The notes: generated from the sequence alone by a model not told the origin. A stretch of 63,266 nt of DNA from an uncultured Klebsiella sp. (GCA_964610955.1 CAZSYV010000004.1:2596-65861); one strand, 5' to 3'; shown: positions 46,318 to 61,032, counted from the first letter of the stretch. A program made the numbers and translations.

Positions 46318-46755
46318 ATGACATGGGGAGTCATTCTGATTCTGCTGTTCGCCGGAATCTATGTCGGCCTGCGCCTGCATCACGGGTCCAGAAAGACACG
46401 ACGGACGACGAGGCGCGTGCGCGTGGAGGACGGCCGTCGCCACCCGGTGCGCAGCGCCCCCGCAGCTACGACAAAGGACGGTTTCCAGGGCAACCTGGTG
46501 ATGCCGCAGAGAGACAGTTGCGAGGCGGTCCAGCGCTTGCGTGGACGGACATTTCCTGCCGATCGCGTCATCGAGCTCCCGGTCAATGGCTGCGATCGCA
46601 CATCCTGCGGTTGCCACCTGCATCGCATCATGGGGCGGCGACTGTCTTTGCGTCGCGCCCAGTCGGATCGGCGAACCGATGTGCGCTTCGATCTCGATCG
46701 CCGCACGGGGCGCGATCGGCGCAAGGGTGCGGATACCTGGAGAAGCGATGCATGA
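46318..46755 (+). CDS. Hypothetical membrane-anchored Cys4 protein with an Arg-rich DRR-repeat tail
   Basis: AGGAGG RBS; N-terminal TM; C...CxxxxCxC; tail 'SDRR..RFDLDRRTGRDRR'. Confidence 0.7.
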   Translation: MTWGVILILLFAGIYVGLRLHHGSRKTRRTTRRVRVEDGRRHPVRSAPAATTKDGFQGNLVMPQRDSCEAVQRLRGRTFPADRVIELPVNGCDRTSCGCHLHRIMGRRLSLRRAQSDRRTDVRFDLDRRTGRDRRKGADTWRSDA

Positions 46756-46765
46756 GTCGGGGCGT

Positions 46766-48076
46766 ATGGCAAGAACGCTGAGATCGAAGCGCAGCTTTCC
46801 ACAGCGTGGACTGCGCAACATCATGCACCGCATCACGGTGGTGCCCGATCTGGATGAGGTGACGCAGATCGACCACGACAACGAGTGCGATCCGCGCGAG
46901 GCAGGCATTGAACCGCAGCGTACGCAGGCGATCTGGGATGCCGTGCGCACGCTTTATCGCAGTGGCTATTACCCGGCGATCATGTTCAGCCTGAGACGCG
47001 GCGGGCGCACGGTGTTCAGTCGTGCGATCGGACACTCATGCGGCAATGCGCCGGGTGCGTCCGAGGATCAACCCAAGCGTCTCGCGACGATCTCGACACC
47101 AAGCTGTATCTTCTCGGCCTCGAAGGCACTCACCGCAGTGCTCATCCACCGCATGGAGGAGCGGGGGGATCTCGTGCTGCAGAACCCCATCGCCTACTAC
47201 CTGCCCGAGTTTGCCCGCAAGGGCAAGGACCGCATCACGATTCAGCATCTCCTGACACATCGAGCAGGTATCCCGAGCATCGGTGGTGTCGAGGATCCGC
47301 GTGTCGTGCTCGACCACGAGCAGTGCCTGCAGTTGCTCTGCGAGGTGCAGCCGCGCTATCCGTGTGGGCAGCGGCAGGCGTATCACGCGATCACCGGTGG
47401 CGTGATTCTTGCGGAAGTCGTCCGTCGTGTTGCCGGGATGGATATCCGCGAGGCGTGGCGCAGCTGGTTCAAGGAGCCGATGGGTTTCGGTGTGCTGGAT
47501 TATGGGGCGAGTGAGGCGATACGTTCACGGCTTGCAGCGCAGTCACTCACGGGTATCCATGGCGTGCGCTGGGTCGATGAACTGGGGCGTCGACTGATCG
47601 GCGTGCGTTTCGAGGACGTGCTTGAACTGGCTGCCGATCCGGCTTTCTATCGTGCGGTGATTCCTTCGGCCAACATGGTCGCCACCGCCGGGGAAATGAC
47701 TGCGTTCTACCAGATGCTGCTCGATGGGGGGAGATGGAATGGCCGACAGATCCTGCAGCCGGAGACGATCATGCGTGCAACGATGGCCGCGGGGCCGTCG
47801 GCGCGTGACGCCACGATCGGTGTGCCGATGCGCTACAGCCCCGGCTTCATGCTCGGTGGCTCACCGTTCGGACTGTTTGGTGCAAACTCGTCGCGTGCGT
47901 TCGGACATGTCGGATTGTCGAACAACCTGACCTGGGCCGACCCCGAGCGTGGCATCTCGGTAGCCCTGCTGCTCAACGGAATACCCATCGTGGCAAACAA
48001 TCTGCTTGCATTGCTGCGCCTGCTCACCCGTATCACCGCAGGGTGTCCACGTGTCCGTGCACGGCGCAGAAAATGA
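46766..48076 (+). CDS. Serine hydrolase, beta-lactamase/esterase family (mycobacterial LipE-like)
   Basis: SxxK 'FSASKA', 'LLTHRAG', 'YHAITGG', 'FGHVG'; 'IWDAVR.LYRSGYYPAI..RAIGH..GNAP' resembles LipE as recalled. The start codon is uncertain (46748, 46766 or 46823). Confidence 0.88.
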   Translation: MARTLRSKRSFPQRGLRNIMHRITVVPDLDEVTQIDHDNECDPREAGIEPQRTQAIWDAVRTLYRSGYYPAIMFSLRRGGRTVFSRAIGHSCGNAPGASEDQPKRLATISTPSCIFSASKALTAVLIHRMEERGDLVLQNPIAYYLPEFARKGKDRITIQHLLTHRAGIPSIGGVEDPRVVLDHEQCLQLLCEVQPRYPCGQRQAYHAITGGVILAEVVRRVAGMDIREAWRSWFKEPMGFGVLDYGASEAIRSRLAAQSLTGIHGVRWVDELGRRLIGVRFEDVLELAADPAFYRAVIPSANMVATAGEMTAFYQMLLDGGRWNGRQILQPETIMRATMAAGPSARDATIGVPMRYSPGFMLGGSPFGLFGANSSRAFGHVGLSNNLTWADPERGISVALLLNGIPIVANNLLALLRLLTRITAGCPRVRARRRK

Positions 48077-48099
48077 CCGGTTTGCGGGGCGGTGCCGTC

Positions 48100-48750
48100 T
48101 CAGCCCTGTGGCATGCCCAGCCACGACCGAATGCGTGAGTCGCGCCGCAGACCGATCACCAGTGATGCACCGGCATCGCGCAGCGCGATCACCGTTGCGG
48201 CACGGATCGCGTCCTCATCCGAGGTCAGTGCCGCAGTAGGCGTTTTGCCGTAGGCGGTGAAGTTCCAGTGGGCGATCGACTCCCCCGAGACGTCGAGGAT
48301 CTCCAGATCGTACTTGACCCAGATCTCGAAGATCTTCGCACGGGTATCGGCTGGCAGCGCAAACTGGAATTCGCTGACGCGCGGCACGATGATCGCCTGC
48401 ATGCCTGCAGGGCCACCGTGCGGCCCGGACAGCTCGTGCAGTTCGCGAAACGTGCTGGAGAACACGCTGCGAAATGCCTGCACCTGCGGATTTCCCAGGT
48501 TGATCGTCCATTCCTGCGCGGACGGAGCCGGGCGCTTTTCCTGGTGCGAGAACGTGCTGAATTCAGGAGGAAAATACACACCGATCGAAAGCTCCAGGGG
48601 ATCGACGAGTGCTGCCGGAAAGTCGTCGAGCGCGCGAACGTCGACGATGTGTGGACCACAGGCTGCAAGCAGCAGGGTGAGCAGCATGGGCACGATTGCC
48701 CTCAGTCGCAGCAGATCAGCCGGTGGTGAATGCCGAGGTTTCCAAGTCAC
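48100..48750 (-). CDS. Hypothetical lipoprotein (last gene of the TonB/vWA operon)
   Basis: Lipobox 'LLLAAC'; GTG start overlaps the upstream TGA, with GGAGG 7 nt upstream. Confidence 0.75.
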   Translation of the reverse strand: MTWKPRHSPPADLLRLRAIVPMLLTLLLAACGPHIVDVRALDDFPAALVDPLELSIGVYFPPEFSTFSHQEKRPAPSAQEWTINLGNPQVQAFRSVFSSTFRELHELSGPHGGPAGMQAIIVPRVSEFQFALPADTRAKIFEIWVKYDLEILDVSGESIAHWNFTAYGKTPTAALTSDEDAIRAATVIALRDAGASLVIGLRRDSRIRSWLGMPQG

Positions 48751-49742
48751 CTGTAATCCTCCAGTCCGACGAAGGTACCGTCGTTGCGCCATGTCAGCTC
48801 GCGCATCAGCGATGCGAAGCGCACCCCGGTGAAATCCTGATTCGGAGCAAGTGCAAATACCGTCGGGAAGCCGATGGCGTGGATGCGAACCAGCCGCTCG
48901 CCGCCGGTTTCGGCGTTGATGCGATCGACCTCGTTGATCACGCTGGCAATCGATTTCCCGGTGAATTCGTCACCGAGCACGTAGATGCTGATGCGTCGTC
49001 CCGGACGGTGGAAGGTACGGATCGCCGCCACGATGCCCTCGACCGGGCTGCTGTTGCTGTAAGGGTTCCAGTTGGCAAAGCGGCTGATGATCGCGTGCCG
49101 GCGCGCCGGGGTGTCGGGAATCCACTGCCCCCGGTAGCTGGAGAACATGTAGTCCCCCATGTCGTTCATCACCTGGATGCCCTTCAGCTTTGGATAGATG
49201 TCGAGGATGTGGATCATCTCGCGCTGCGTGCGCGGCCAGGCGTTGTAGAACATGCTTCCCGAAGTGTCGATCACGAAGATCACGTATTCGCTGTCGATCG
49301 GTATGCCGCCGATCGTGTCGTCACGGCGTTTTCCCTGCGCGCCGAGCAGGCGCTTCATCTCGGCGGTGAGGCGTTGCTTCGCGCTCTCGAGCTGTCCGGT
49401 GAGGCGGTCCTCGACCGTGTCGGTGCTGTGTGAGGCGGCGTGTTCACCACGGATCGTGGAGAGATCGCCCTGCAGGCGTGCCACCGCATCCAGCGTCTCG
49501 GAGAGCTGCTCGCGACGCGCATCGAGGTCGCGCTCGAACCGTATCGACTCACCGCGCAACTCCTGCAGTTCCTCCTGGAGTGCCGCGATGCGCCCGTGCA
49601 GGTCCTGTGTGCTGCGCTCCAGTGCCCGTGGCGCACCAATGCGCGTGATCATCATCAGCAGGATGATTGCTCCGAAGCCACAGCAGATCACGTCGAGAAA
49701 CGACAGGCTGAACGCCTCACTCGCGCGCCGGTTGAATCTCAT
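48747..49742 (-). CDS. Membrane-anchored vWA-domain protein 2
   Basis: TM 'FSLSFLDVICCGFGAIILLMMI', coiled coil, MIDAS 'IDTSGS', 'VLGDEF'. Confidence 0.85.
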   Translation of the reverse strand: MRFNRRASEAFSLSFLDVICCGFGAIILLMMITRIGAPRALERSTQDLHGRIAALQEELQELRGESIRFERDLDARREQLSETLDAVARLQGDLSTIRGEHAASHSTDTVEDRLTGQLESAKQRLTAEMKRLLGAQGKRRDDTIGGIPIDSEYVIFVIDTSGSMFYNAWPRTQREMIHILDIYPKLKGIQVMNDMGDYMFSSYRGQWIPDTPARRHAIISRFANWNPYSNSSPVEGIVAAIRTFHRPGRRISIYVLGDEFTGKSIASVINEVDRINAETGGERLVRIHAIGFPTVFALAPNQDFTGVRFASLMRELTWRNDGTFVGLEDYR

Positions 49743-50827
49743 GGCCAGTCCCGTGCGGGGGAGAGGAAGGCGCCACGGGTTCTGATCGCCAGTTGCCAGA
49801 ACGCCGATGCGGCCATTGGGTCGCCTTCCATCGGTGCCAGGATCACGTTGACCGGTACCCCGCGAGGCAGTGCCGCAAGCGCCTGATTGAAGTACTTCAT
49901 GCGATCGCGGCCACTGACCTTGGACGGTGGGCTGCCACTGCCCTGCGTCGGCAGACCGTCGGTGATCAGGTAGATATTGTCGGGTGCAGGCTTCATTGCC
50001 GCGACAGCCTCGAATGCGGCAAGGAGGCTGGTTCCGCCACTGGGGGTGATCATATCCAGAGCGGCAATCGCCCGCCCGAGCTGCTCGCGGTCGCTGACCG
50101 GGAGCCACTTGCCGGCAGTGTCCGGCAGCAGCGTTTCGGCACGGGTGGAGAATGACAGGATCTGATACTCGGCATCGGACGGAAACCGGGCGCTGATCCA
50201 GTTGACCGTGGCAAGCGCACGTTGCCATTTTGCTGCCCGTCGCCGCACCGGTTCAGGCATGTTGCGCAGCCGGATGATGTTGACCAGCGAGTGATCGAGC
50301 ATGCTTGCCGAGCGGTCGAGCAGCACGACGATGCGCCGTCCACCGAGCTTCAGCCCGGTGAGGTACTGACGGTCGCCATCGCCGATGAAGCGGCGCACAT
50401 CGCTGCCCGAATGACGTTCGGTCTCGGCGCGCAGCTGCTCGTTGCGCTGTTCGAGCTCGCGCAGGTCGGCCTTGAGCTGGTTCAGATGCTCGTTGCGCGC
50501 ACTGCTGTCGTGGCGGTTCCTGGCGAGTTCCTCGCGCCGTTCGCGGATCTCGCGCAGCAGCTCCCGTGATCGCCCACGTGCCTCGACGGTGGAGTCGTCG
50601 ATCATCGAGATGGTGTTGTGCAGCACAGCGAGCTTCTCGTGCTCCTCGCGTACCTCGCGGTCGTAGAACTCCACTTCGGCGAGCAGTTCGCGACTCGCAT
50701 CCTGCGCACGCAGCTCGCCGGAGTGATCGATGATCAGGAATACCAGAATCGTTGCACCGAAGCCACACGACATGATGTCGAGGAACGACAGGCTGAAGAT
50801 GGAAAATTCGCGGCGTTTACGGGCCAT
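49739..50827 (-). CDS. Membrane-anchored vWA-domain protein 1
   Basis: TM 'FSLSFLDIMSCGFGATILVFLI', coiled coil, MIDAS 'LDRSAS', 'GGTS', 'LITDGLP'. Confidence 0.85.
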   Translation of the reverse strand: MARKRREFSIFSLSFLDIMSCGFGATILVFLIIDHSGELRAQDASRELLAEVEFYDREVREEHEKLAVLHNTISMIDDSTVEARGRSRELLREIRERREELARNRHDSSARNEHLNQLKADLRELEQRNEQLRAETERHSGSDVRRFIGDGDRQYLTGLKLGGRRIVVLLDRSASMLDHSLVNIIRLRNMPEPVRRRAAKWQRALATVNWISARFPSDAEYQILSFSTRAETLLPDTAGKWLPVSDREQLGRAIAALDMITPSGGTSLLAAFEAVAAMKPAPDNIYLITDGLPTQGSGSPPSKVSGRDRMKYFNQALAALPRGVPVNVILAPMEGDPMAASAFWQLAIRTRGAFLSPARDWP

Positions 50828-52196
50828 CGTCGTCGACAGCCGATTCGGCGACCAGCCGCAGCGTATCGTCTCCGTCGTCAGGCTGCAGATGCTGGCCCGC
50901 CTGCACTGGCAGCGGTGCACTCACCGGGACGCCGTCGAGGCGCAGCATGGTGCCTGGTGCGGGAACCAGCAGCCAGCGCGAACCGTCCCAGCGCAGCGTG
51001 CCGGCGTAGGTCTGTGGCATGCGCTGAGACAGAGTCCAGCCGTCACGGTCGTGGCACAGGTAAAGACTGCTCGGCCGAAGTCGCAGGGCGCGCCCGCCGA
51101 TCACGAGGTGGCTGGGCAGGACTGGACTGGCCAGCAGAGGAGGGGGGTCGGGTGGCGCGTCGAGCTGGTCTGCGGGCTGGCCGTTGCCGTCGGGCGATGC
51201 CTCGCTGGCCGGGAGCCGGGTGACGAAGCGCAGAGTGGTGTCATTGCTGCCGATCAGTGCCTCGTGGTGCAGGCAGCCACGGATCGCTGCCTGTTCCTCG
51301 AGTGATGTGAATGCGGGCAACAGCTCTCCGATGCCCGGCAACGCCGCGAAGCGCGCGCTGGCGAGCAGCAGTACATTCTCGGCTCCGAGTTCGCGCTGCA
51401 CGGCCTGCACGATCTGGGTGTAGATCGGTCGGGCCGCATCGAGCACATCGGGTGCGCGCAGCTTCGCGTGGTAGACGCTTGCGTTGCTGTGGATTTCGAC
51501 AGCGGCATCTTCGCTGCCGTGCAGCATGTCCAGCCAGTCGGGAATGCGGTCGTAGAGCTGCTGCTCGCTTGCGGCGGCGTGCATCGGGTCGAAGCGGCTT
51601 TGTTGGATGAAGCGCCGTGCCAGCAGCTGTGCCCAGCGCTCGTACAGCTGCACCAGCCCGCAGCCCGGCAGGGTACGCACCGATTCGCGTGTGAGCATGT
51701 CGGCCTCGTGCCCGATGCGTGTCAGCACGCACTGGTGAAGCTGCAGGTCGAGGTGCAGCGTTGCGCCGCGGGTTGTCACCGTGCTGGCGGCGGCGAGCGC
51801 GCTGTCGACCAGCCCGGTGGCGCGAAATGCAGTGCGCTGTACGACTCCGAGCAGCACTGCGAGCTGTTCGCGGGTGAAACTTCCAGGGACGGCCAGGATG
51901 AGCTGTTGCGCTCCGTTCGCGGCAGTGGCGAGCTGCTGCAGTTGGGCCCAGGCCAGGTCGGCATGATGGCGTGCATGGTCGTGAGCCTCGTGCAGCGCTT
52001 CGGTGCCGAGGCGCAGCCAGAACTGGTTCAGCGTCTGGCGCGGTTCGCGGCGTGCACGTGCGCGTGCCGCCTCGCCGGTGATCACCCCATTGCGTGTGAT
52101 CGTCGCGTAGCCCGGACTGCGCAGTGGTGCTGCCTTGCCGTCGCCGAGCAGCAGCGCCGTGTCGTTGAGCTCGAGCACCCGGCTGTGTGTGTTCAT
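50817..52196 (-). CDS. Hypothetical cytoplasmic protein: degenerate Hsp70/actin-like NBD plus FHA-like domain
   Basis: DnaK-like spaced motifs ('SPGYA..GEAA...P..T..', 'ILAVPGSF..EQ..', 'VDSALAAA', 'LHLDL'); C-terminal 'LDGVPV...V.AG..L'. Confidence 0.6.
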   Translation of the reverse strand: MNTHSRVLELNDTALLLGDGKAAPLRSPGYATITRNGVITGEAARARARREPRQTLNQFWLRLGTEALHEAHDHARHHADLAWAQLQQLATAANGAQQLILAVPGSFTREQLAVLLGVVQRTAFRATGLVDSALAAASTVTTRGATLHLDLQLHQCVLTRIGHEADMLTRESVRTLPGCGLVQLYERWAQLLARRFIQQSRFDPMHAAASEQQLYDRIPDWLDMLHGSEDAAVEIHSNASVYHAKLRAPDVLDAARPIYTQIVQAVQRELGAENVLLLASARFAALPGIGELLPAFTSLEEQAAIRGCLHHEALIGSNDTTLRFVTRLPASEASPDGNGQPADQLDAPPDPPPLLASPVLPSHLVIGGRALRLRPSSLYLCHDRDGWTLSQRMPQTYAGTLRWDGSRWLLVPAPGTMLRLDGVPVSAPLPVQAGQHLQPDDGDDTLRLVAESAVDDDGP

Positions 52197-52999
52197 GGCT
52201 CGCGTGTGACCTTCAGGTGTCCGAGCAGGCGGCGGTCGGAGTAGGCCTGTGCGTCGAGCACGAGGCGTTCCTGCTGCAGTTGCAGCTGGTGCATCAGGAA
52301 CATGAGCAGGATGCTGATCACCAGTGCGACGAAGGTCGAGTTGAACGCGACACCAAGCGCTGCGGTAACGCCGGTGATGTCGCCTTCGACGGCGCGGTGC
52401 GCCTGCGTCAGCGCCATGCCGATGCCGCGCACGGTGCCGATGAAGCCAAACGAGGGGATGGCCCACGCGATGTAGCGCACCATCGAGAGCTCGGACTCGA
52501 GCCGCTCTCCCTCGGTTTCGCAGACCTCGTGGATCGCATTCGCGGTGTCCTGGATGCTGCGTGTGGCAGCAAAGCGCTGCAGCCCTGCAACCAGGGCGCG
52601 TGGCAGCAGTGCACGCGCCGTTTCAGGTGGCAGCGCCTGGATCGGGCGCAGGTACTCGCGCGCGTCTTCCGGCAGGATGCTGGTTCCCTCGGGAACCTGT
52701 ACCAGCGGCTGTTCGAGCAGGCGTTTTTCGACGCGCAGCGCCATTCCCTTGTAGCCCATGATGGCGAAGGACCAGAACATCAGCACAAAGCAGATCTCCT
52801 GTTCGTAGTCCTTCACGATCACCCACACGGAGGGTGCATGTGCGCTGGTGTCACCGAGCGCGAGTCGTGCCTGCTCGGCGGCCAGTACGGCCTCGGCCTC
52901 TGGCGCCACCACGGCGACGTAGAAGGCATGAACCACGATCAGCGCAATCAGCAGCGCGACCAGCTGAAAGAGAAACTCGGAGGCAAACAGGCGTTTCAT
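52193..52999 (-). CDS. MotA/TolQ/ExbB proton-channel family protein
   Basis: 'AIPSFGFIGTVRGI', 'LGVAFNSTFVAL', three to four TM segments. Confidence 0.92.
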   Translation of the reverse strand: MKRLFASEFLFQLVALLIALIVVHAFYVAVVAPEAEAVLAAEQARLALGDTSAHAPSVWVIVKDYEQEICFVLMFWSFAIMGYKGMALRVEKRLLEQPLVQVPEGTSILPEDAREYLRPIQALPPETARALLPRALVAGLQRFAATRSIQDTANAIHEVCETEGERLESELSMVRYIAWAIPSFGFIGTVRGIGMALTQAHRAVEGDITGVTAALGVAFNSTFVALVISILLMFLMHQLQLQQERLVLDAQAYSDRRLLGHLKVTREP

Positions 53000-53009
53000 G
53001 GTGTGGTGT

Positions 53010-53246
53010 TCAGATATCGGACGGGAATGATACGGAGAGATCCTCCGCAATGCTCTCGCTGGGAATGAAGCGCTCATCTTCCGGGTTGCGCGTTGTCTGG
53101 TGTGTTGCGGTGCCTGCCTTCTCGGTGTCGGTATCGACCACTGGCGGAGCCGTGGGCGGCGGTGTGCCTGTCTGCGGCATGTCCTGCGTGTGTGCTGCTA
53201 CGGTGAATGCCAGCAGTGCGAACATCGATGCAGCGGAGTGTTTCAT
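53010..53246 (-). CDS. Small secreted protein with an acidic C-terminal motif
   Basis: Signal peptide 'MKHSAASMFALLAFTVAA', Pro/Thr linker, 'DERFIPSESIAEDLSVSFPSDI'; ATGA overlap with the upstream gene. Confidence 0.7.
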   Translation of the reverse strand: MKHSAASMFALLAFTVAAHTQDMPQTGTPPPTAPPVVDTDTEKAGTATHQTTRNPEDERFIPSESIAEDLSVSFPSDI

Positions 53247-55306
53247 TCGGCGTACCTTGCAATGCGGAAACCGAGGTCGGGGCGAGGCCCCTTTCCGTAG
53301 TCGCGAAACGCCAGGCGCAGTGTCGTGACATCGCCATTGCGCCAGCTGGCGCCACGGATCGTGTGCAGCTCGCCCGACTGCGGGCCGAGTGGGTCACTGG
53401 AGCTCGCACCAGGCAGCGGCTCGTAGGCATCGTGCATCCATTCTGCCACGTTGCCGTCGAGATCGAAGATGCCGTGGCGGTTCGCCTTGAAGCTGCGTCG
53501 TGGTGCGGCGACGGGGAAACCGTCGTCGTAGTTCGCGAGGATCTCCCCGAGCAGCGTCGCACCGCTGCGATCGGCGAAGTTGCCGGCCCCGCGCGGTGGC
53601 GGCAGATCCTGTCCCCAGGCGAATCGCAGCGTCGAACCGTCGGCCATCACGCCAGCCGCCCACGCCCACTCGGCCTCGCTCGGCAGGCGATAGCCGCGGC
53701 TGTTCGGGTCGAAGCCAACGACGTGGCCACCCTGCACGCGGTAGAAGGGCTCGAGCTTGTCCCGGGCGCTCAGCCAGTTGCAGTAGAGGGCTGCATCCTC
53801 CCAGCCGAGGTTCACCGCAGGCAGCGTGTCGGCATCGAGCGCCTTGCCCTTGAACTCCCCCGATGCATGTGCGGGACGGAAGCGGCGGAACTCGCCATTC
53901 CCGACCTCGGCAACACCGATGAAGAAGGGTCGCCGCATGCGGACTTCGTGCAGCGTTTCGTTGGCTCGCCGGCCGAGCTCGCGGCGCGAGGAGCCCATTG
54001 TGAAGGTGCCTGGTCGCAGCAGCACCAGTTCCTGGCCCTCGGAGCTGGTGATGCGCTCCTCGCGCGGTGCCGCAGCGGCCTTTGGGGTCGTCAACGGGCG
54101 CAGTTTCACCTCGATGCGCTGCGCAAAGCCTGGGCGCGGAGTGAAGCGCAGCTCGTGCGTCTGGTAGCCGCTGCGCTGGACGCGCAGCGTATGCTCGACT
54201 CCGGGTAGCGTGAGGCTGCGCGTGCCGCGCGACACGGGGCGCGCATCGAGCAGCACATCGGCATCCGCAGGTTCGATCGCGAGCTGTACCTCACCATTCT
54301 GGGGTGCCAGCTTCAGCGTCAGTGTCTGGGTGCCGGAGTTCGCCGGCAGGGAGCGGACGACGCGTTCATGACCGGCCTTGAAGGCGATCAGCTCATGTAC
54401 CTGACTCGAGTCGATTGCGAGCTCCAGTGGTGCACGTCCCTGGAATACGCCATCGAGCGTGATGCTTGCCCCTTCGGGGTGGGTGGTGATGCGCAGCACG
54501 GCATCGGCGCGTTCGAGAGTCAGCGGCTCGAGCGTGCGTTCCTCGCCGGCGTTGGCGTCGATCATCAGGACGCCATCGCGGTGACCATCCAGGCGAAGGC
54601 GCAGGTGGTGGGTGCCAGCCAGCAGCTCGATGCGTGCCGGCGTGCTCGCCACTGCGGCGTCATCGACCAGGATGGCTGCACCCGGAGGCTGGGAATCGAT
54701 GTCGTAGCTACCCCAGCCCGGGGCGAGCGTGACGTCCAGCGTCTGCAGTTCGCCCCTTCCGATAATGGAGATCGTCTGTTCGTGTGTGAGAAATCGATCT
54801 GCCTCGATGCGCAGTCGGTGGTCTCCGGCGGCGAGCCCGATAGGCGCTCCATTGCTGTCGCCAACTGGATTGTCGTCGATCACGATGTGTGCGATGACCG
54901 GCGTGGTGTGCACGGCAATGCGCCCCGGCAGCGGCATCAGCTGGATGGCGAGCTGCTGGTCGCGACTGGCGTCGATCCGTACCTCGCGCTGGGTGGCAGC
55001 GTATCCCGGGGCTGTTGCGTGCACCGTGTAGTCACCCGGGTGCAGCAGGACCCGTCGGCCGAAGGGAACTGTCGGTCCGCCGGAAACCGTCACCTGGGTG
55101 TTGCTGGGGTCGAGCTGCAGCACGAGCACTCGTGCACCGAGCACGAACCAGGTGACTGTCGCCAGAGCGACCAGCACCGCGCCAAGTGCAAACCAGTGTC
55201 CGCGTGGTCCGGTCCGGTGCCCACGTCGCGCTGCGGGTGGCGTATAAGCGAGTGGTGCGATCGGTTCATCGATACCCGTATCGCTTGCCTGATCGTGCCG
55301 ACTCAC
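53243..55306 (-). CDS. Membrane-anchored multi-PEGA plus FGE-sulfatase (SUMF1)-fold protein
   Basis: N-terminal TM; several PEGA repeats ('TTPV.A.I.ID', 'SQPPGA.I.VD', 'THPEGA.I.LDG'); C-terminal 'FTMGS', 'P.V..WEDA..YC.WLS', 'RLPSEAEW', 'GNVAEW', 'RGASW', 'GFR'. Confidence 0.9.
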   Translation of the reverse strand: MSRHDQASDTGIDEPIAPLAYTPPAARRGHRTGPRGHWFALGAVLVALATVTWFVLGARVLVLQLDPSNTQVTVSGGPTVPFGRRVLLHPGDYTVHATAPGYAATQREVRIDASRDQQLAIQLMPLPGRIAVHTTPVIAHIVIDDNPVGDSNGAPIGLAAGDHRLRIEADRFLTHEQTISIIGRGELQTLDVTLAPGWGSYDIDSQPPGAAILVDDAAVASTPARIELLAGTHHLRLRLDGHRDGVLMIDANAGEERTLEPLTLERADAVLRITTHPEGASITLDGVFQGRAPLELAIDSSQVHELIAFKAGHERVVRSLPANSGTQTLTLKLAPQNGEVQLAIEPADADVLLDARPVSRGTRSLTLPGVEHTLRVQRSGYQTHELRFTPRPGFAQRIEVKLRPLTTPKAAAAPREERITSSEGQELVLLRPGTFTMGSSRRELGRRANETLHEVRMRRPFFIGVAEVGNGEFRRFRPAHASGEFKGKALDADTLPAVNLGWEDAALYCNWLSARDKLEPFYRVQGGHVVGFDPNSRGYRLPSEAEWAWAAGVMADGSTLRFAWGQDLPPPRGAGNFADRSGATLLGEILANYDDGFPVAAPRRSFKANRHGIFDLDGNVAEWMHDAYEPLPGASSSDPLGPQSGELHTIRGASWRNGDVTTLRLAFRDYGKGPRPDLGFRIARYAE

Positions 55307-56886
55307 ACCTTCTCCACGCACTGCACGAGCACTTCGGCGGGAGTCTGTCCGGCACGTACGCGGAACTCGATGCGCACGTCGCGAAAGCCGTTGCGACGAC
55401 CGACGGCGACGTAATTCCCCGGCAGCAGTTCCAGGGTTCTTTCCACCAGCGTGCCGTAGCTGCCGACGCGCAGCACGCTGACCTCGGTCTGCCCGTCGGA
55501 GCGCAGCTGCAGCGTGAGGGGTGTGCTGTAGGTCCTCAGCAGGCCGCGTACCGCTGCCAGGCGTGCCTTCAGCCGGGGCCCCGGGTCGCTGATCGCGGCG
55601 GCACGGGCGAGCAGTTCGCCGGCACGGCTGCGTGTGCCCGGCTCGAGCAGGCGATCGGGTGTGTGTTCGAGTTCTGTCAGCGCCTCGTCGAGTGCGATGC
55701 GCCGTGCTGCCTCCCGGCTGCCTTCGATCGCGGGGCCGAGTGTCGCGTCGATCGTCAGTGCCGCATCGAAATCACGCCTTGCCTTCACCCAGTCCTCGGC
55801 GTGTGCCGCCTGGCGTGCGCTGCCGAGCAGCTCGGCAATGCGCTGCTGGCTGAGCTGGAACTGCGCCTGCTGCAGTCCTTCGCGTGCCTCCGTGCCCGTC
55901 CCGTGCAGCGCCAGTGCCGCGCGGAATTCCTTCGCTGCGCCTGCATTGTCGGCCCGTGCGAGTGCCCCGAAGCCGGCAGAAAGGTGCTCCCTGTAGCGTT
56001 GCCCGGCGATGCGTGAGCGCAGATCGTCGAGCGCCTTGCGCGCTGGCGCGTACTCGCCATCGAGCGCCAGCGCCTGCTCGTAGTTCTGTTGTGCCAGCGC
56101 TGTGTCGCCCGCTGCATCGGCAACGGTGGCCCGTGTGCTCAGTTCGAGCACCTGATCCAGCGTGGCGGCGCGCTGCAGTCCGTGGCGTGCTGCGGCGTTT
56201 TCCTGATCGATCGCCAGTGCTTCGGCAAACAGTGCGGTTGCCTGGGCGGAATCACCTGCCGCAAGCGCAGCGGAGCCGCGGGTGAGCCGATCCTGCAGCC
56301 GTGTGCCGATGCCGTCGAGCGTTGCCTGCAGGATGGCAGTTGCCTCGCGGTAGCGTGTCTGCGCCGTTTCATGATCCCCCTCACGGTATGCTGCATCGCC
56401 CTCGGCCGCGAGCGAGGACGCCTGCTCGAGTTCCGGCTTCGCCCAGTCGCCTGCCCGACGTTCCTGCAGTTCGTGCTGGAGCATGAGCAAGGTGTCCAAT
56501 GCCTTCTTTGCTGCCTGGCGCTGCTGTTCGTCGACCATCCGCGCGTAGGGTGACTCCGTGGCGGGGGGCTGGGCTTCGATCGGGGGCGCTGGCGGTGTGG
56601 CGTCGGTCGTCTGTGCCGATCCTGCCGTTGCAGAAGTTTCCGGGGTCATCGTCTGTGTCGCTGCTGCGTGCTGGCGGGCGACATAGTCGGGGAGCAGGAA
56701 GAAGACGCCAGCGGCAAGGGCGAGCAGGGCGCCGATCAGCAGTGCCGGCAGCGGCAACGGTCTGCGTTGAACGGCATTCGGGATGGGGCTCGCTGCCTGC
56801 GAGATATCGACTTTCGCTGGCAGGATGCGGTCGAACTCCTTGCCGCCCATCAATGGTGTTCCCGTCCCCGATCGAGGTGGATGCAC
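55303..56886 (-). CDS. Membrane-anchored TPR/coiled-coil protein with a C-terminal PEGA-like domain
   Basis: TM 'LLIGALLALAAGVFFLLP', Pro/Ala linker, TPR-like helices ('A..LF.EAL.ID.EN..A..GL'), beta-rich tail 'LLPGNY.A.G.R.GFRD'. Start is either GTG 56886 or ATG 56850. Confidence 0.75.
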   Translation of the reverse strand: MHPPRSGTGTPLMGGKEFDRILPAKVDISQAASPIPNAVQRRPLPLPALLIGALLALAAGVFFLLPDYVARQHAAATQTMTPETSATAGSAQTTDATPPAPPIEAQPPATESPYARMVDEQQRQAAKKALDTLLMLQHELQERRAGDWAKPELEQASSLAAEGDAAYREGDHETAQTRYREATAILQATLDGIGTRLQDRLTRGSAALAAGDSAQATALFAEALAIDQENAAARHGLQRAATLDQVLELSTRATVADAAGDTALAQQNYEQALALDGEYAPARKALDDLRSRIAGQRYREHLSAGFGALARADNAGAAKEFRAALALHGTGTEAREGLQQAQFQLSQQRIAELLGSARQAAHAEDWVKARRDFDAALTIDATLGPAIEGSREAARRIALDEALTELEHTPDRLLEPGTRSRAGELLARAAAISDPGPRLKARLAAVRGLLRTYSTPLTLQLRSDGQTEVSVLRVGSYGTLVERTLELLPGNYVAVGRRNGFRDVRIEFRVRAGQTPAEVLVQCVEKV

Positions 56887-56887
56887 A

Positions 56888-58072
56888 TCATGGCATGCCG
56901 GATTCTGCGGCGTAGATGTCACGCAGCACACCGCGCCACTGGCGGTACTGCTCCTCTGCAGTGCCGCTCAGTGTGACACGCCGCTCGTCGAGGTCGATGA
57001 CCCGTGGCTGGACTTCGGCACCCAGCGATGCACCGAGCTCCTTCAGTGTTTCCGCGTGCATCTTCGACTCCTCGCGCTTGTCCATGCCGCTCTTCACCAT
57101 GACCGCGCCGCCGATGATGCCCACGGATCCGGCCGCACGCGTTCGGGCGTTGTCACTGCCCTGCGCGGCGATGCCTCCGATGATCGCGGCAATTCCCGCC
57201 ACCGTGCGCAGGGTCGCCTGGCGACGCATCTCCTGGTATGCCAGGGCTTCGCCGTGGGTCTCGCGCCGCCAGTCCTGGTACGGTCGTGACATCTGTCGGG
57301 CAAAGGCGTCGTACTGATCCTGCAGCGTGTCGATGAACAGTGCGTCGCGTTCGCGGATGCGCCGCACTCGCTCGAGCATCGGATCGCTTTCTGCCGGCAG
57401 GCGAACGATGTGCGTGATTCCCTTGCGGTCGGTGTCGAGGTAGCCGTCGAAGGCCTGCGGCGAGAATGTGGCGGCGAACTTCAGCTCGGCGATGGTGCGC
57501 AGTTCACGTACGTGGCGGGGCTCGATCTCCGCACGATAGGCAGCCAGGTCGTTCGCGATGCGGTTGTATACGTCCTGAAAGGGGTCGAGGGCTGGTGCAC
57601 CCGCCGCGCTGTCGTAGCTGTAGCGACTTGCGGTGCCTTCATAGCGGCGGGTGTACCACCGGGCGCCGCTGACGTCGCTCGCGGTGATCTCGAGTTCGAG
57701 TTCGAGCCCGGTCGACTTGAGGATCCGTCCCTGCACGATCACATCGCTCACGGCAGTCTGGTCGGGAATCACGCGCACCGCGCCCCAGTGGCCGCTGCCC
57801 TGCAGGGTGGTGGCGAGCACCACCGGCATGTAGCGTGCCTCGGCCTCACGGATCTCGGGGGCGGTCAATATCTCGTTTTCGCCGAGCCGCTCCACGCCTG
57901 GGGCGAAAGGGCGCACGGCGACGTCCAGCAGTTCCTCTTCCGGGCGTGTGGGGTCGCCCTTGTTTACCGGTGTCACGGTCGTGGTGCGCACCGTGTTGGC
58001 GCCACAGGCACAGAGCAGCGCGAGCACACAGCTCAGCAGCGTGAAGCGGATCAGCAGTTGCAGCTGCCTCAT
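56888..58072 (-). CDS. Hypothetical lipoprotein with an alpha/beta domain and glycine-zipper hairpin
   Basis: Lipobox 'LLCAC'; 'VAGIAAIIGGIAA...AAGSVGIIGGAVMVKSG'. Confidence 0.75.
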   Translation of the reverse strand: MRQLQLLIRFTLLSCVLALLCACGANTVRTTTVTPVNKGDPTRPEEELLDVAVRPFAPGVERLGENEILTAPEIREAEARYMPVVLATTLQGSGHWGAVRVIPDQTAVSDVIVQGRILKSTGLELELEITASDVSGARWYTRRYEGTASRYSYDSAAGAPALDPFQDVYNRIANDLAAYRAEIEPRHVRELRTIAELKFAATFSPQAFDGYLDTDRKGITHIVRLPAESDPMLERVRRIRERDALFIDTLQDQYDAFARQMSRPYQDWRRETHGEALAYQEMRRQATLRTVAGIAAIIGGIAAQGSDNARTRAAGSVGIIGGAVMVKSGMDKREESKMHAETLKELGASLGAEVQPRVIDLDERRVTLSGTAEEQYRQWRGVLRDIYAAESGMP

Positions 58073-59238
58073 CGCCCTTTCTCCTTCCTCGTCAGACCCG
58101 TGTACTTGCGGTATTCGTCCCACAGTCTTTCACGCAGCTCGGGATCCTTCTCCTTCATTGCCGCTTCGCGTATCTGACGTGCGACCACATCGTCCGCGCT
58201 GCCGTCGGGAATGTCCGCAGGCACGGCGGCGCTCGCCTGTCGGGCTGCACCCGGGCCACTGCGGCCCGAGGTGCCGTTCTGCGTCGTGGCGGTGCTCACT
58301 CCGCCTGGGGTGGCTGCCCCTGCAGAATCTGTTTCGCTGGTGACATCCGCTGTCCCGTATCCGGGCGAATCCTCGTTGCCGTCCTCGGGTGCGGAGGCGC
58401 CTTGTTCCATGCCCGCATGGCTTCCAGCCTTCTCTGCGCGCTCCATTGCGCGCGCACGCTCGCCGGCCAGCGTGTCATCGAAGCGTCCGAGCGATACGCC
58501 GAGTTCACGTTCGAGGCGGGCGACTTCGAGGGCTGCCGTACCCTGGGCACCGCTGCCGCTCGTGCCGACTTGCTGTGGGCTGCCCGTGCCAGCGCCAGTA
58601 TTCGTGCCTGCACTCGTGTGCCGTTGTGCCTCCGTGTCCTGCTGTCCGCCAGCCGTGCCTCGATGTCCACCAGCGGTGCCCTGTTGTCCGTCGGGTCCCT
58701 GCTGGTTGCGGTCATTCTCCACCCCAACTGCCGCTGTGTCGTTTCCTGACGTATTCCCGTCTGCCTGCGCTGGCGTTCCCGCGGCCGAGGTTGACTGGTG
58801 CTCGCGCATCGCCTCGAGTGCGGCGTCGAGCACATCCTGTTCGGCTTCGGCTTCAGTAGTACGCGAGGGGTGCTCCGGATCCTCCAGGGTGATCTCCTGA
58901 CTGTTCCCTGTATCGCTGTCTGCTGCCGCGGCAGTCGTTGCATTGGCTTCTGGCTGGTTCACTGGAGCCTGTGTGGCATCCCGTGATGACTCACCAGATG
59001 GTGAACCACGCTTGCCCTTGTCGCCTGCAGCGCCAGCCGATGGCGATGTGGAGGCGGCACTGCCTTGCTGAGACGGTGTTGGCGCCGGTGCAGATGACGA
59101 AGCCGAAGATGAAGCCCCGGCCGTTGGTGGTGTGGGTATTGAGGGTGCGGTACTGGTCGTCTTGCAGCCACCGAGCACGAGCAGGCAAAGCAGTCCTGCA
59201 AGGCGTGCGGACACGCAGTTCATCGGCCACTTCCTCAT
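58069..59238 (-). CDS. Low-complexity lipoprotein with a short helical C-terminal domain
   Basis: Lipobox 'VLGGC'; about 300 aa rich in Ala/Gly/Ser/Thr/Gln; ends 'DIPDGSADDVVARQIREAAMKEKDPELRERLWDEYRKY'. Confidence 0.75.
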   Translation of the reverse strand: MRKWPMNCVSARLAGLLCLLVLGGCKTTSTAPSIPTPPTAGASSSASSSAPAPTPSQQGSAASTSPSAGAAGDKGKRGSPSGESSRDATQAPVNQPEANATTAAAADSDTGNSQEITLEDPEHPSRTTEAEAEQDVLDAALEAMREHQSTSAAGTPAQADGNTSGNDTAAVGVENDRNQQGPDGQQGTAGGHRGTAGGQQDTEAQRHTSAGTNTGAGTGSPQQVGTSGSGAQGTAALEVARLERELGVSLGRFDDTLAGERARAMERAEKAGSHAGMEQGASAPEDGNEDSPGYGTADVTSETDSAGAATPGGVSTATTQNGTSGRSGPGAARQASAAVPADIPDGSADDVVARQIREAAMKEKDPELRERLWDEYRKYTGLTRKEKGR

Positions 59239-60479
59239 GGTGTGTACGAGTACTGGTAGTCAACGTTTTCGGTCGCTACCGGTTGACCGTTCTCGAAGCG
59301 CGGACGAAAGGTCGTGGTGGAGATTCGCCTGCGCAGGCGCTGCACTTCCCGCTCGCTCGCAGGAGGGGAGGACTCGAGAACCTGCATGCCGCTCGCCCTG
59401 CCGTTCTCGTTCACGCTGAAGCGCACGCTGATCCACCCCGTGTCGTCGTGCGGCATCGGCACCGCGCTGATGTCGGCCGGAAGCAGTGGCAGTGGACGCG
59501 GCTTGCCGAACACGACATCGCGTATCTGCGCCGCCTCGCTGCCGGAGCGTTCGCCGTGCGCCCAGGCTTCCTGATAGAGGCGCAGCGCGCTCTGGCGCCG
59601 AGCGAACAGCTGGTGCCAGTCGGCAAGTTCGGCAAGCGCCTCGCTGCGCTCGAGGGGGTTGCTCGTGGTGTCGCGATCAAGCAGGTCGGCAGCGCGGCGC
59701 AGCGCATCGCGCCCCGAGGCGAAACTGTTGGCGATTTGCGCCTGAATCGCCATCTGCTCGTTCTGCTCGCTGCCAAACCCCGTGCTTTCGCGCACCAATG
59801 GCGCCTGACCCGCGACGTAATAGTCGACCAGCGCGCGGCGGCGCAGTGCTTCGGCGATGCGTCGTTCCTGCGGGCCGTGGTTCGTCTCGAGGATGGTGAC
59901 CGCCGAGTCGTAGAACTGGCGCGCGCTCAACAGGTGCTGCACGGGATCCTTGCCGATCCCGTCGAGGTAGGCACGCATATGCCATGCGGAGAGCCGGTTG
60001 AGTACCGGCACCAGCCGTTCATCGTTGTCGCCGTAGTTGCGTCGATAGATGACGAATACCTGACGGTAGCGGTTCTGCACCTTTTCCCAGTCGCCAAGTG
60101 CCGCGTGGCTTTCGATCAGCCGCTCCAGTACCGGCAGGTCTGCGCGGCTGTACAGGCCTTCATTGATGCGTGTGATGTGTTCCGCGCGGCTCAGCGCAGC
60201 TACAGCCTCGGCGTGGCGACCCTGCTGCTGATACACGAGTCCGAGTCCGAGCAGTTCCTGCTGCAGCGCGGCAGCCCAGGCGCCGCCCTCGGCCTCGAGT
60301 GCCTGCACGCTGTCGAGATAACGCTGAACGGGTGCGGGCGCTTCCTGCTGGATGCGATCGCCCGCGGCGTCGGCAGCTCCTGCAATGGCGCCAGCCGACT
60401 GGAGCACGAGAGCGCAACCGACCGTGAGCGTGACCCACCGTCCGACACCACCAGGCGTACTGCGTTCGCCGCGAGACAT
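59235..60479 (-). CDS. TPR plus TonB C-terminal domain (energy transducer-like) protein
   Basis: N-terminal hydrophobic segment, TPR repeats, C-terminal 'GWISVRFSVNENGRAS.MQVLES.P..F.PRFENG.PV'. Confidence 0.85.
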   Translation of the reverse strand: MSRGERSTPGGVGRWVTLTVGCALVLQSAGAIAGAADAAGDRIQQEAPAPVQRYLDSVQALEAEGGAWAAALQQELLGLGLVYQQQGRHAEAVAALSRAEHITRINEGLYSRADLPVLERLIESHAALGDWEKVQNRYRQVFVIYRRNYGDNDERLVPVLNRLSAWHMRAYLDGIGKDPVQHLLSARQFYDSAVTILETNHGPQERRIAEALRRRALVDYYVAGQAPLVRESTGFGSEQNEQMAIQAQIANSFASGRDALRRAADLLDRDTTSNPLERSEALAELADWHQLFARRQSALRLYQEAWAHGERSGSEAAQIRDVVFGKPRPLPLLPADISAVPMPHDDTGWISVRFSVNENGRASGMQVLESSPPASEREVQRLRRRISTTTFRPRFENGQPVATENVDYQYSYTP

Positions 60480-60509
60480 ACGTTTTGCCTGCCACCCTGT
60501 CATGGCCGC

Positions 60510-60515
60510 ATTCTA
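60510..60515 (-). promoter_or_regulatory. Putative -10 (TAGAAT) of the TonB/vWA operon
   Basis: TAGAAT on the - strand 30 nt upstream of the ATG, followed by a GC-rich discriminator; a divergent TATAGT lies at 60578-60583. Confidence 0.35.
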
Positions 60516-60618
60516 GCGCCAGTGCACGGGTGCGGCGAGCACGTCGCTGCGCTGTGGTTCAGTCTCTGGTGAGGCGCTATAGTCGTTGCCTGTCCGGGTG
60601 TGAGTGGGGCGAGGATCG

Positions 60619-61032
60619 ATGCGGGTCGAAGAAGTCAACAAGGAACGGGTGCGGCGTTTTTTCGCCGCAATGAGTGCCGGTGACGTTGCTGCGCTGATCG
60701 ATGCCTATGACGATGAAGGTGCGGTATGGACCAGTGGACACACCCTCATTTCGGGCACCTTTCCGAAGGTGCGTATTCGCGAGGCGGCCGGGCGCATCTT
60801 CGAGGCCTTTCCTTCCGGGATCGAGTTCGTCATTCATGCGATGACGGCAGAGGGGGACCGGGTGGCGGTCGAGGCCGAATCGCGTGGACTGCACATCAGC
60901 GGCAAGCGGTACAACAATCTCTATCATTTCCTGTTCCGTTTTCGCGACGGGCGGGTGCTGAGCCTGCGTGAGTACATGGATACCGAGATGGTGACCGACG
61001 TACTATGCGGCGGACAGCGTCCGGCTCGCTGA
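60619..61032 (+). CDS. NTF2/SnoaL-like (ketosteroid-isomerase-like) protein
   Basis: 'N...VRRFF.A...GD', 'AEGDRVAVE', 'G..YNN.YHF.F..RDG.....REY.DT'. Confidence 0.9.
   Translation: MRVEEVNKERVRRFFAAMSAGDVAALIDAYDDEGAVWTSGHTLISGTFPKVRIREAAGRIFEAFPSGIEFVIHAMTAEGDRVAVEAESRGLHISGKRYNNLYHFLFRFRDGRVLSLREYMDTEMVTDVLCGGQRPAR

Follow-up and report, generated by a model that had tools for sequence, protein, structure and literature searches.

Between the channel and axle genes of a proposed TolQ/vWA-type motor, an operon encodes an Hsp70-type nucleotide-binding domain with a remodelled cleft, fused to an FHA domain

The 5:2-type motors of the TolQ/ExbB/MotA kind act on periplasmic or flagellar partners, and we know of no dedicated soluble cytoplasmic subunit for the Ton/Tol branch. 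In the motors referred to as TPH-vWA, which were proposed in PMC12204202 (Mol Biol Evol 2025), a TolQ-like gene that is not accompanied by tolR or exbD is closely linked to the genes of a heterologous vWA pair, and the Asp-bearing helix of the vWA proteins is predicted to lie inside the TolQ-like pentamer. Here we describe a stretch of 63,266 nucleotides from an uncultured Klebsiella sp. (GCA_964610955.1 CAZSYV010000004.1:2596-65861), referred to as the window, in which an operon with the same architecture of channel and vWA pair carries one more gene between them. Its product joins an Hsp70-like nucleotide-binding domain (NBD) to an FHA domain and is referred to as the Hsp70-like/FHA protein. 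The gene is the eighth of 11 co-directional genes on the minus strand (48100-60503), which are listed in Table 1.

The TolQ/ExbB-like channel gene of the window goes without a tolR, exbD or motB gene and adjoins the genes of two different vWA proteins with Asp helices, as in the TPH-vWA arrangement; no protein of the operon matched the ExbD, TolR or MotB model in a Pfam scan. Both vWA proteins have a short basic N-terminal tail, a near-invariant helix ([SN][LI]SFLD[VI]..CGFGA, present in both proteins across the loci listed), a coiled coil and a vWA domain with a DxSxS motif. The ExbD/TolR-like Asp helix of vWA protein 1 reads SLSFLDIMSCGFGA, and its vWA domain carries DRSAS; in case of vWA protein 2, the helix reads SLSFLDVICCGFGA and the vWA-like domain behind the coiled coil carries DTSGS. 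The operon nevertheless differs from the described motors, since the text and two supplementary files of PMC12204202 mention no gene intervening between the channel and vWA genes and no Hsp70-like or FHA protein, and the rest of the 11-gene operon is likewise undescribed there. A search of the literature for the domain combination returned no description of an Hsp70-like/FHA protein, and a study of biological-conflict systems (PMC7159879, eLife 2020) contained no vWA/Hsp70/FHA/PEGA combination resembling the operon. A reading of the locus as a defence system was also considered and rejected, PADLOC having given only a weak ZorA-like similarity of the channel protein. Each part of the Hsp70-like/FHA protein is of a known kind, be it the degenerate Hsp70 NBD, the FHA domain blind to phosphothreonine or the scaffold of ASKHA type; the fusion of NBD and FHA domain, and its fixed place in a TolQ/vWA motor operon, are undescribed.

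We surveyed the synteny of the operon by tblastn in 82 loci, with gene order judged only where the contig was long enough. The ten larger genes of the operon had identical order and strand in all of the ~80 sufficiently long loci, and the Hsp70-like/FHA gene lay between the TolQ/ExbB-like channel gene and the two vWA genes in all ~80 gammaproteobacterial genomes examined; two further distant members, beyond the 82 loci, showed the same arrangement. Consecutive genes overlap by 4 nt (channel and Hsp70-like/FHA genes), 11 nt (Hsp70-like/FHA and vWA 1), 4 nt (vWA 1 and vWA 2) and 4 nt (vWA 2 and the last lipoprotein), and the overlap of 11 nt is found in Microbulbifer as well, where the identity of the protein is 34%. 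The initial annotation, made from the sequence of the window, had placed the protein in the cytoplasm beside the motor, and this is supported by the strict synteny and by the overlap of start and stop codons with those of the neighbouring channel and first axle genes. The PEGA proteins whose tails it had named for interaction tests are not the downstream neighbours; these are the two vWA proteins, and the two PEGA-containing proteins lie upstream of the channel gene.

Relatives of the Hsp70-like/FHA protein were detected in 284 species genomes with a profile from a 13-sequence alignment. Among the matches listed, the hosts are almost all Gammaproteobacteria, including Microbulbifer, Porticoccaceae, Cellvibrionaceae and some Lysobacterales. 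The family comprised 2,243 members (cluster representatives at 50% identity) when 1.84 billion representatives were searched. The window's own sequence was found in activated-sludge, wastewater and soil metagenomes, and contigs from sludge metatranscriptomes (runs X25, X27, X28 and X26) with at least 95% identity covered, at low depth, much of the operon (47800-60700), the Hsp70-like/FHA gene included; one of these contigs (52063-52427) spans the junction of the channel and Hsp70-like/FHA genes.

The open reading frame (ORF) delimited mechanically on the minus strand runs from a GTG at 52466 to the stop at 50817 and would encode 549 aa. As all homologues begin at the ATG corresponding to 52196, with M..VLELND, and as this ATG shares an ATGA overlap with the stop of the MotA/ExbB-like gene, we take 52196 as the start and 50817-52196 as the gene, so that the coordinates and the length of 459 aa given in the initial annotation are correct. 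The 90-codon upstream extension (52196 to the GTG at 52466) lies over the channel gene in a different frame and lacks conservation, and we advise against annotating it. All strings that the initial annotation had quoted were found in the protein, namely RVLELNDTALLLG at the phosphate-1 position, LHLDLQLHQ at the phosphate-2 position, SPGYAT..GEAARARARREPRQT, VPGSFTREQL, VDSALAAAS and FIQQSRFDPMHAAASEQQL. Its statement that the protein has neither a signal peptide nor a transmembrane (TM) segment also holds: we found no signal peptide and no stretch of TM grade, the highest 19-residue Kyte-Doolittle mean being 1.59. Judged from its sequence, the protein is soluble and cytoplasmic.

No match to the Hsp70-like/FHA protein was obtained in the Pfam, NCBIfam and PADLOC scans, and a single-sequence search of the PDB gave one irrelevant match (E 0.63). 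Neither the window protein nor any of 59 aligned relatives, which were scanned against Pfam at E<=1, matched the HSP70 model (PF00012), and none of the relatives matched the FHA model. The folds were identified from structure models instead. A full-length AlphaFold2 model, built on the 59-sequence alignment, had a mean predicted local distance difference test score (pLDDT) of 92.6 and a predicted template modelling score of 0.74, and showed an alpha/beta domain at residues 1-330, a disordered stretch at 338-355 (pLDDT <50) and a beta domain at about 360-450. When the N-terminal domain was compared with the PDB by Foldseek, the best 50 matches were all Hsp70 or Hsp110, with DnaK 2v7y at the top (E 2.8e-16); entries consisting of the NBD only gave target-normalised TM-scores of 0.66-0.75 and root-mean-square deviations of 3.5-4.8 A, at 12-14% identity. 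The model has the two-lobed ASKHA fold with subdomains IA, IB, IIA and IIB. The C-terminal 109 residues, modelled alone, gave a pLDDT of 92.8 and 11 strands that map one-to-one onto the FHA topology, and the best 50 Foldseek matches were FHA domains or FHA-containing proteins (E 1.3e-3 to 4e-2, target-normalised TM-score <=0.69), including KIF1A, Rv0020c, EmbR, Ki-67, KIF13B, CT664, a type III secretion protein and the type VII protein YukB.

Profile comparisons pointed to the same two folds. A global hhalign of the family against E. coli DnaK and Hsc70 was collinear across the whole NBD (E 0.0016), and a local alignment against DnaK alone gave a 33-residue match (E 0.034). The C-terminal region aligned to three canonical FHA domains (GarA, OdhI and Ki-67) with 92% probability and E 5.6e-7. 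Searched against PDB sequences, the family profile retrieved the FHA domains of EssC, KIF13B and Ki-67 (E 0.015-0.16) and, on the Hsp70 side, only SSB1, weakly (E 0.44-0.88). The initial annotation had predicted an Hsp70-type ASKHA NBD followed by an FHA beta-sandwich and had proposed AlphaFold with Foldseek as a check; both predictions were borne out, and neither a fold other than ASKHA nor a C-terminus other than FHA was obtained. Between the two domains, the linker (residues 331-360) is rich in proline, variable in length and essentially unconserved, with a mean majority-residue frequency of 0.07 vs 0.48 for the NBD, which indicates that the FHA domain is a tethered module. This and the following conservation values refer to 251 family members, mostly representatives at <=50% identity.

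With the Hsp70 NBDs (those of DnaK, Hsc70 and BiP, and the degenerate ones of Ssz1 and Hsp110) the window protein shares the four-subdomain ASKHA fold and a series of landmarks, which are P28, G41, A44, P52, VPGSF, P287 and A..RGCL, corresponding to P37, G51, A54, P62, VPAYF, P347 and AVAIGAA of DnaK, whose reference sequence and numbering were checked against PDB chains. Its NBD is, however, ~50 residues shorter, mainly in subdomain IB, all three glycine-rich loops are replaced, and the substrate-binding domain and lid of Hsp70 are absent, their place being taken by the disordered linker and the FHA domain. The phosphate-1 motif of DnaK, D8-L-G10-T11, corresponds to E9-L-N11-D12; this mapping rests on a manual alignment to the predicted strand1-loop-strand2 hairpin, since hhalign misplaces strand 1. 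The phosphate-2 hairpin D194-L-G-G-G-T199 became D150-L-Q-L-H154-Q155, the adenosine motif L-V-G341-G342-Q-T-R became L-L-S280-x-R282, and the position of the catalytic K70 is occupied by W60 in all 251 members. The loops for phosphate 1, phosphate 2 and adenosine and the lysine at position 70 are therefore not found in the family, and only acidic residues are kept, at or adjacent to the positions of DnaK D8, N170/E171 and D194.

In their place, new polar residues have become fixed where the nucleotide loops once stood. Position 9 is E or D in 246 of the 251 members, N11 is found in 234, D12 in 249, D80 in all 251 and H154 in 248; D131 is present in 235 and position 150 is D or E in 249, with the alignment register near D131 and D150 uncertain by one residue. 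Q155 is near-invariant, and R201, P204, E211 and Q212 are conserved in ~100%. The motifs of the NBD can thus be written as E9-L-N11-D12, W60, R76-H-H-A-D80, VPGSF, D131, D150-L-Q-L-H154-Q155, R201..E211-Q212 and S280-x-R282..P287. The initial annotation had described the NBD as probably dead. The loss of the canonical ATP-binding elements on which this rested is confirmed by hhalign and by the conservation analysis, and canonical binding or hydrolysis of ATP is, to judge from the sequence, very unlikely; "dead" is nevertheless too strong a word, as the replacement residues are among the most conserved of the family. Because they are almost invariant, we regard the cleft as remodelled and under selection rather than decaying, and it probably does something other than the ATPase work of Hsp70.

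The FHA domain, too, has lost what its canonical relatives use. Canonical FHA domains contact phosphothreonine through the Arg of G-R, through Ser and His of S-x-x-H and through the Asn in the S-x-N-G loop, and none of these has a conserved counterpart in the family. C381-H382, Q395..A398 and T416 of the window protein align with them, and the family shows variation or gaps at residues 383-385. The sole FHA elements that persist are the structural x-(N/D)-G and G-D-x-I, and the conserved residues of the domain that are specific to the family are H363 and A370 (strands 1-2) and G434. The loss of the phosphothreonine pocket that had been noted at first inspection was confirmed both by this conservation pattern and by hhalign to canonical FHA domains, and the domain is predicted not to read phosphothreonine.

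Candidate ligands are offered by the two bitopic proteins of the operon. In the PEGA/FGE protein, a cytoplasmic tail and a TM helix are followed by five PEGA domains and then by an FGE-sulfatase-like domain; in the TPR protein, such a tail and helix are followed by TPR repeats and, at the C-terminus, by a PEGA-like beta domain recognised by eye. The start of the TPR protein is uncertain, a Met at ~56850 being possible. The tail of the PEGA/FGE protein carries the motif I-x-P-Φ-x-[FY]-[TSE]-P in 71 of 72 loci (IAPLAYTPP in the window; 55200-55321, minus strand), and that of the TPR protein carries F-x-x-I-x-P-A-[DE]-Φ-x-Φ in 41 of 51 (FDRILPAKVDI in the window; ~56780-56850, minus strand). Both motifs stand directly before a basic stretch and the TM helix, have the core I-x-P-x-x-Φ in common and are set in tails that otherwise cannot be aligned. 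Such conservation would imply a cytoplasmic binding partner. As the motifs are conserved and the Hsp70-like/FHA protein is the operon's sole soluble cytoplasmic product, the tails of these PEGA proteins, which the initial annotation had proposed for interaction tests, are concrete candidate ligands for it.

Proteins of this kind have precedents in other envelope machines. PilM acts as a clamp on the conserved N-terminal tail of PilN, and GspL has a cytoplasmic domain that binds no nucleotide. Like PilM, GspL and FtsA, the Hsp70-like/FHA protein is a soluble or peripheral protein of ASKHA fold encoded with bitopic membrane partners, and since the two partners in the window bear conserved cytoplasmic tail motifs, a similar binding of tails can be proposed by analogy. 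Unlike these scaffolds, its NBD belongs, among the best 50 fold matches, to the Hsp70 branch and not to the actin/FtsA branch, and its partner machine, a putative proton-driven 5:2-type motor, has no secretion ATPase. The FHA domains of YscD/EscD, EssC/YukB and GltG likewise lack the phosphothreonine residues and sit at the cytoplasmic face of an envelope machine, and a prediction places that of GltG on the AglR pentamer, bound to its cytoplasmic face (PMC11761067). Those domains are fused to a membrane protein, whereas in the window a flexible linker tethers the FHA domain to a soluble Hsp70-like domain. By analogy, PilM and GspL on one side, and the FHA domains of YscD, EssC and GltG on the other, may serve as precedents for a docking role.

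Since the gene always lies between the channel and axle genes, we consider it most likely that the Hsp70-like/FHA protein is a cytoplasmic docking or regulatory subunit of the motor without ATPase function, a reading that we favour on balance and with guarded confidence. The motor would be a TolQ/ExbB-like pentamer, and its axle a vWA heterodimer that inserts ExbD-like Asp helices into the channel, as predicted in the literature; the machine as a whole would be a conserved 11-gene envelope system driven by the proton motive force, with the Hsp70-like/FHA protein as its only soluble cytoplasmic subunit. The protein would have descended from an Hsp70 NBD that lost its substrate-binding domain and the canonical elements for ATP binding and hydrolysis, and that gained a flexibly tethered FHA domain blind to phosphothreonine. 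Made alongside the channel and axle subunits, it may dock on the cytoplasmic face of the motor and capture the I-x-P-x-x-Φ peptides in the tails of both bitopic PEGA-containing proteins, and this capture could hold their periplasmic parts around the motor or gate motor activity. Several observations weigh against such a role. The near-invariant replacement residues of the cleft fit an inert scaffold no better than a site for a ligand or metal, and the tail motifs could bind the channel's own cytoplasmic domain instead. The protein is the least conserved among the products of the motor-proximal genes (32-68% identity across loci, with 53-88% for the channel and 50-80% for vWA protein 2, the best-conserved axle protein), and the FHA domain is its least conserved folded part (mean majority frequency 0.29 vs 0.48 for the NBD). 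The metatranscriptome contigs are shallow and may include contaminating DNA.

The strength of selection on the cleft is also what speaks for the main rival, in which the cleft is a working sensor for a metal, a small ligand or a non-canonical nucleotide, and the opening and closing of the lobes switches the motor in the manner of a clutch or brake. The acidic residues at the positions of DnaK D8, N170/E171 and D194 and the near-invariant N11, D12, W60, H154 and Q155 all fall at the five classical ASKHA motif positions, and conservation of this degree would not be expected had the site decayed. On the other hand, no glycine-rich loop is left to grip a phosphate, D12 would repel one unless a metal bridged them, and the neighbouring genes suggest no ligand, so that we hold the sensor to be possible and no more than that. 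A wider proposal, equally tentative, is that the Hsp70 NBD was rebuilt as a clamp operated by a metal or ligand, with a cleft lined by E/D9, N11, D12, W60, D131, D/E150 and H154, which couples or gates rotation through the tethered FHA domain and the I-x-P-x-x-Φ tails in a new class of proton-driven 5:2 rotary motor. If this were true, no cytoplasmic clutch or load of a TolQ/ExbB-type motor would have been described before it.

Other explanations depart further from the docking or regulatory role and are much less probable. The FHA domain could be a phospho-dependent adaptor, with a Ser/Thr kinase encoded elsewhere marking the Thr of F-T-P in the PEGA/FGE tail and so regulating assembly. The domain does have the FHA fold, and the residue before the Pro in the tail is usually Thr or Ser and sometimes Glu, a possible phosphomimic; but the Arg, Ser/His and Asn that would bind phosphothreonine are absent, their positions being variable or gapped, the residue before the Pro is Q, V, A, L or I in some genomes, and the 10-kb flanks of loci L001, L083 and L084 contain no kinase or phosphatase gene, which makes the adaptor improbable. 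MreB provides a track or anchor for the gliding machinery of Myxococcus, and the ASKHA fold together with the motor context could suggest an actin/MreB-like polymer that serves as a cytoplasmic track or as a cytoskeletal anchor for the motor. The analogy to MreB in gliding that the initial annotation had drawn is unsupported, however, as there is no actin, MreB, ParM or FtsA entry among the best 50 structural matches; the protein retains the Hsp70 landmarks TPS, G..A...NP..T, VPxxF and the subdomain-IIB helix, and Hsp70 NBDs are, to our knowledge, not known to form filaments. We regard a polymer as very improbable, and as hardly credible the idea that the protein still works as an ATP-driven chaperone or assembly factor of Hsp70 type for the membrane proteins of the machine. 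Its descent from an Hsp70 NBD would fit such a factor, but there is no substrate-binding domain, no J-domain or GrpE gene in the operon and no match to the Pfam HSP70 model among the family members scanned, and the glycines of all three nucleotide motifs are replaced along with K70.

The remaining genes of the operon are given in Table 1. The channel gene most likely starts with MKRLFASEF at 52999, as inferred from homologues, although the mechanical ORF reaches 53077. The small gene before it (53010-53246) encodes a protein with a signal peptide and the conserved C-terminus ERFIPSESIAEDLSVSFPSDI and has an ATGA overlap with the PEGA/FGE gene; in L009, L011 and L012 the same C-terminal motif is likewise encoded ahead of the channel gene, and in L001 and L084 the place of this gene is taken by ORFs of 92-110 aa. 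One may speculate that the acidic C-terminus of this 78-aa protein is a ligand of the DxSxS sites of the vWA proteins. The best NCBIfam resemblance of the FGE-sulfatase-like domain encoded within 53243-55321 is to GldK/PorK (E 3.1e-20; 72.9 bits vs a cutoff of 350), known as the ring lipoprotein in type IX secretion and gliding, a system that is also driven by a 5:2-type motor. The TonB_C-like end of the first protein of the operon hints at a contact with a partner in the outer membrane or peptidoglycan. Downstream of the operon, a gene for ~223 aa and a Peptidase_M48 gene follow in the Microbulbifer locus L001 (14186-16355) and in L083 (14310-16533), a distant metagenomic relative, and in the window a gene of beta-lactamase fold lies on the opposite strand (46541-48076, plus strand).

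Table 1. Genes of the operon, in order of transcription, and domains of the Hsp70-like/FHA protein (coordinates within the window)
Order	Feature	Coordinates	Strand	Evidence and remarks
1	Secreted TPR protein with weak TonB_C-like end	59235-60503	-	Pfam TPR_12 9.4e-9; TonB_C 8.8e-4, below cutoff
2	Low-complexity lipoprotein	58069-59238	-	ORF
3	Lipoprotein	56888-58123	-	ORF
4	Bitopic TPR protein	55303-56931	-	Pfam TPR_2; tail motif; synteny
5	Bitopic PEGA/FGE protein	53243-55321	-	Pfam PEGA 4.3e-36, FGE-sulfatase 1.6e-34
6	Small secreted protein, 78 aa	53010-53246	-	Translation; below the threshold of the ORF list
7	TolQ/ExbB/MotA-like channel subunit	52193-52999	-	Pfam MotA_ExbB E 1.1e-14
8	Hsp70-like/FHA protein, 459 aa	50817-52196	-	ORF, start fixed by homologues; stop codon included
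	Hsp70-like NBD with remodelled cleft, residues 1-330	51207-52196	-	Foldseek, hhalign, conservation in 251 members
	Proline-rich linker of variable length, residues 331-360	51117-51206	-	pLDDT, conservation
	FHA beta-sandwich of 11 strands, residues 361-450	50847-51116	-	Model, Foldseek, hhalign, PDB profile matches
9	vWA protein 1, 362 aa	49739-50827	-	Pfam VWA_2 E 1.1e-8
10	vWA protein 2, 331 aa	48747-49742	-	ORF, ATGA overlap with vWA protein 1, helix conservation
11	Lipoprotein of ~216 aa, last gene of the operon	48100-48750	-	GTG start overlaps the stop of vWA protein 2 (GTGA); position kept in nearly all loci

The Hsp70-like/FHA proteins form a large and wholly unannotated family that is tied to a motor class proposed only in 2025. 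The fold, the residues that were lost and gained and the two candidate peptide ligands turn what was a hypothetical protein into a subject that can be tested directly. The family offers a clear case of an Hsp70 domain that is under strong selection after the loss of every canonical ATP-binding element, and it bears on how an uncharacterised envelope machine is assembled or controlled in marine and wastewater Gammaproteobacteria such as Microbulbifer, Porticoccus and their relatives.

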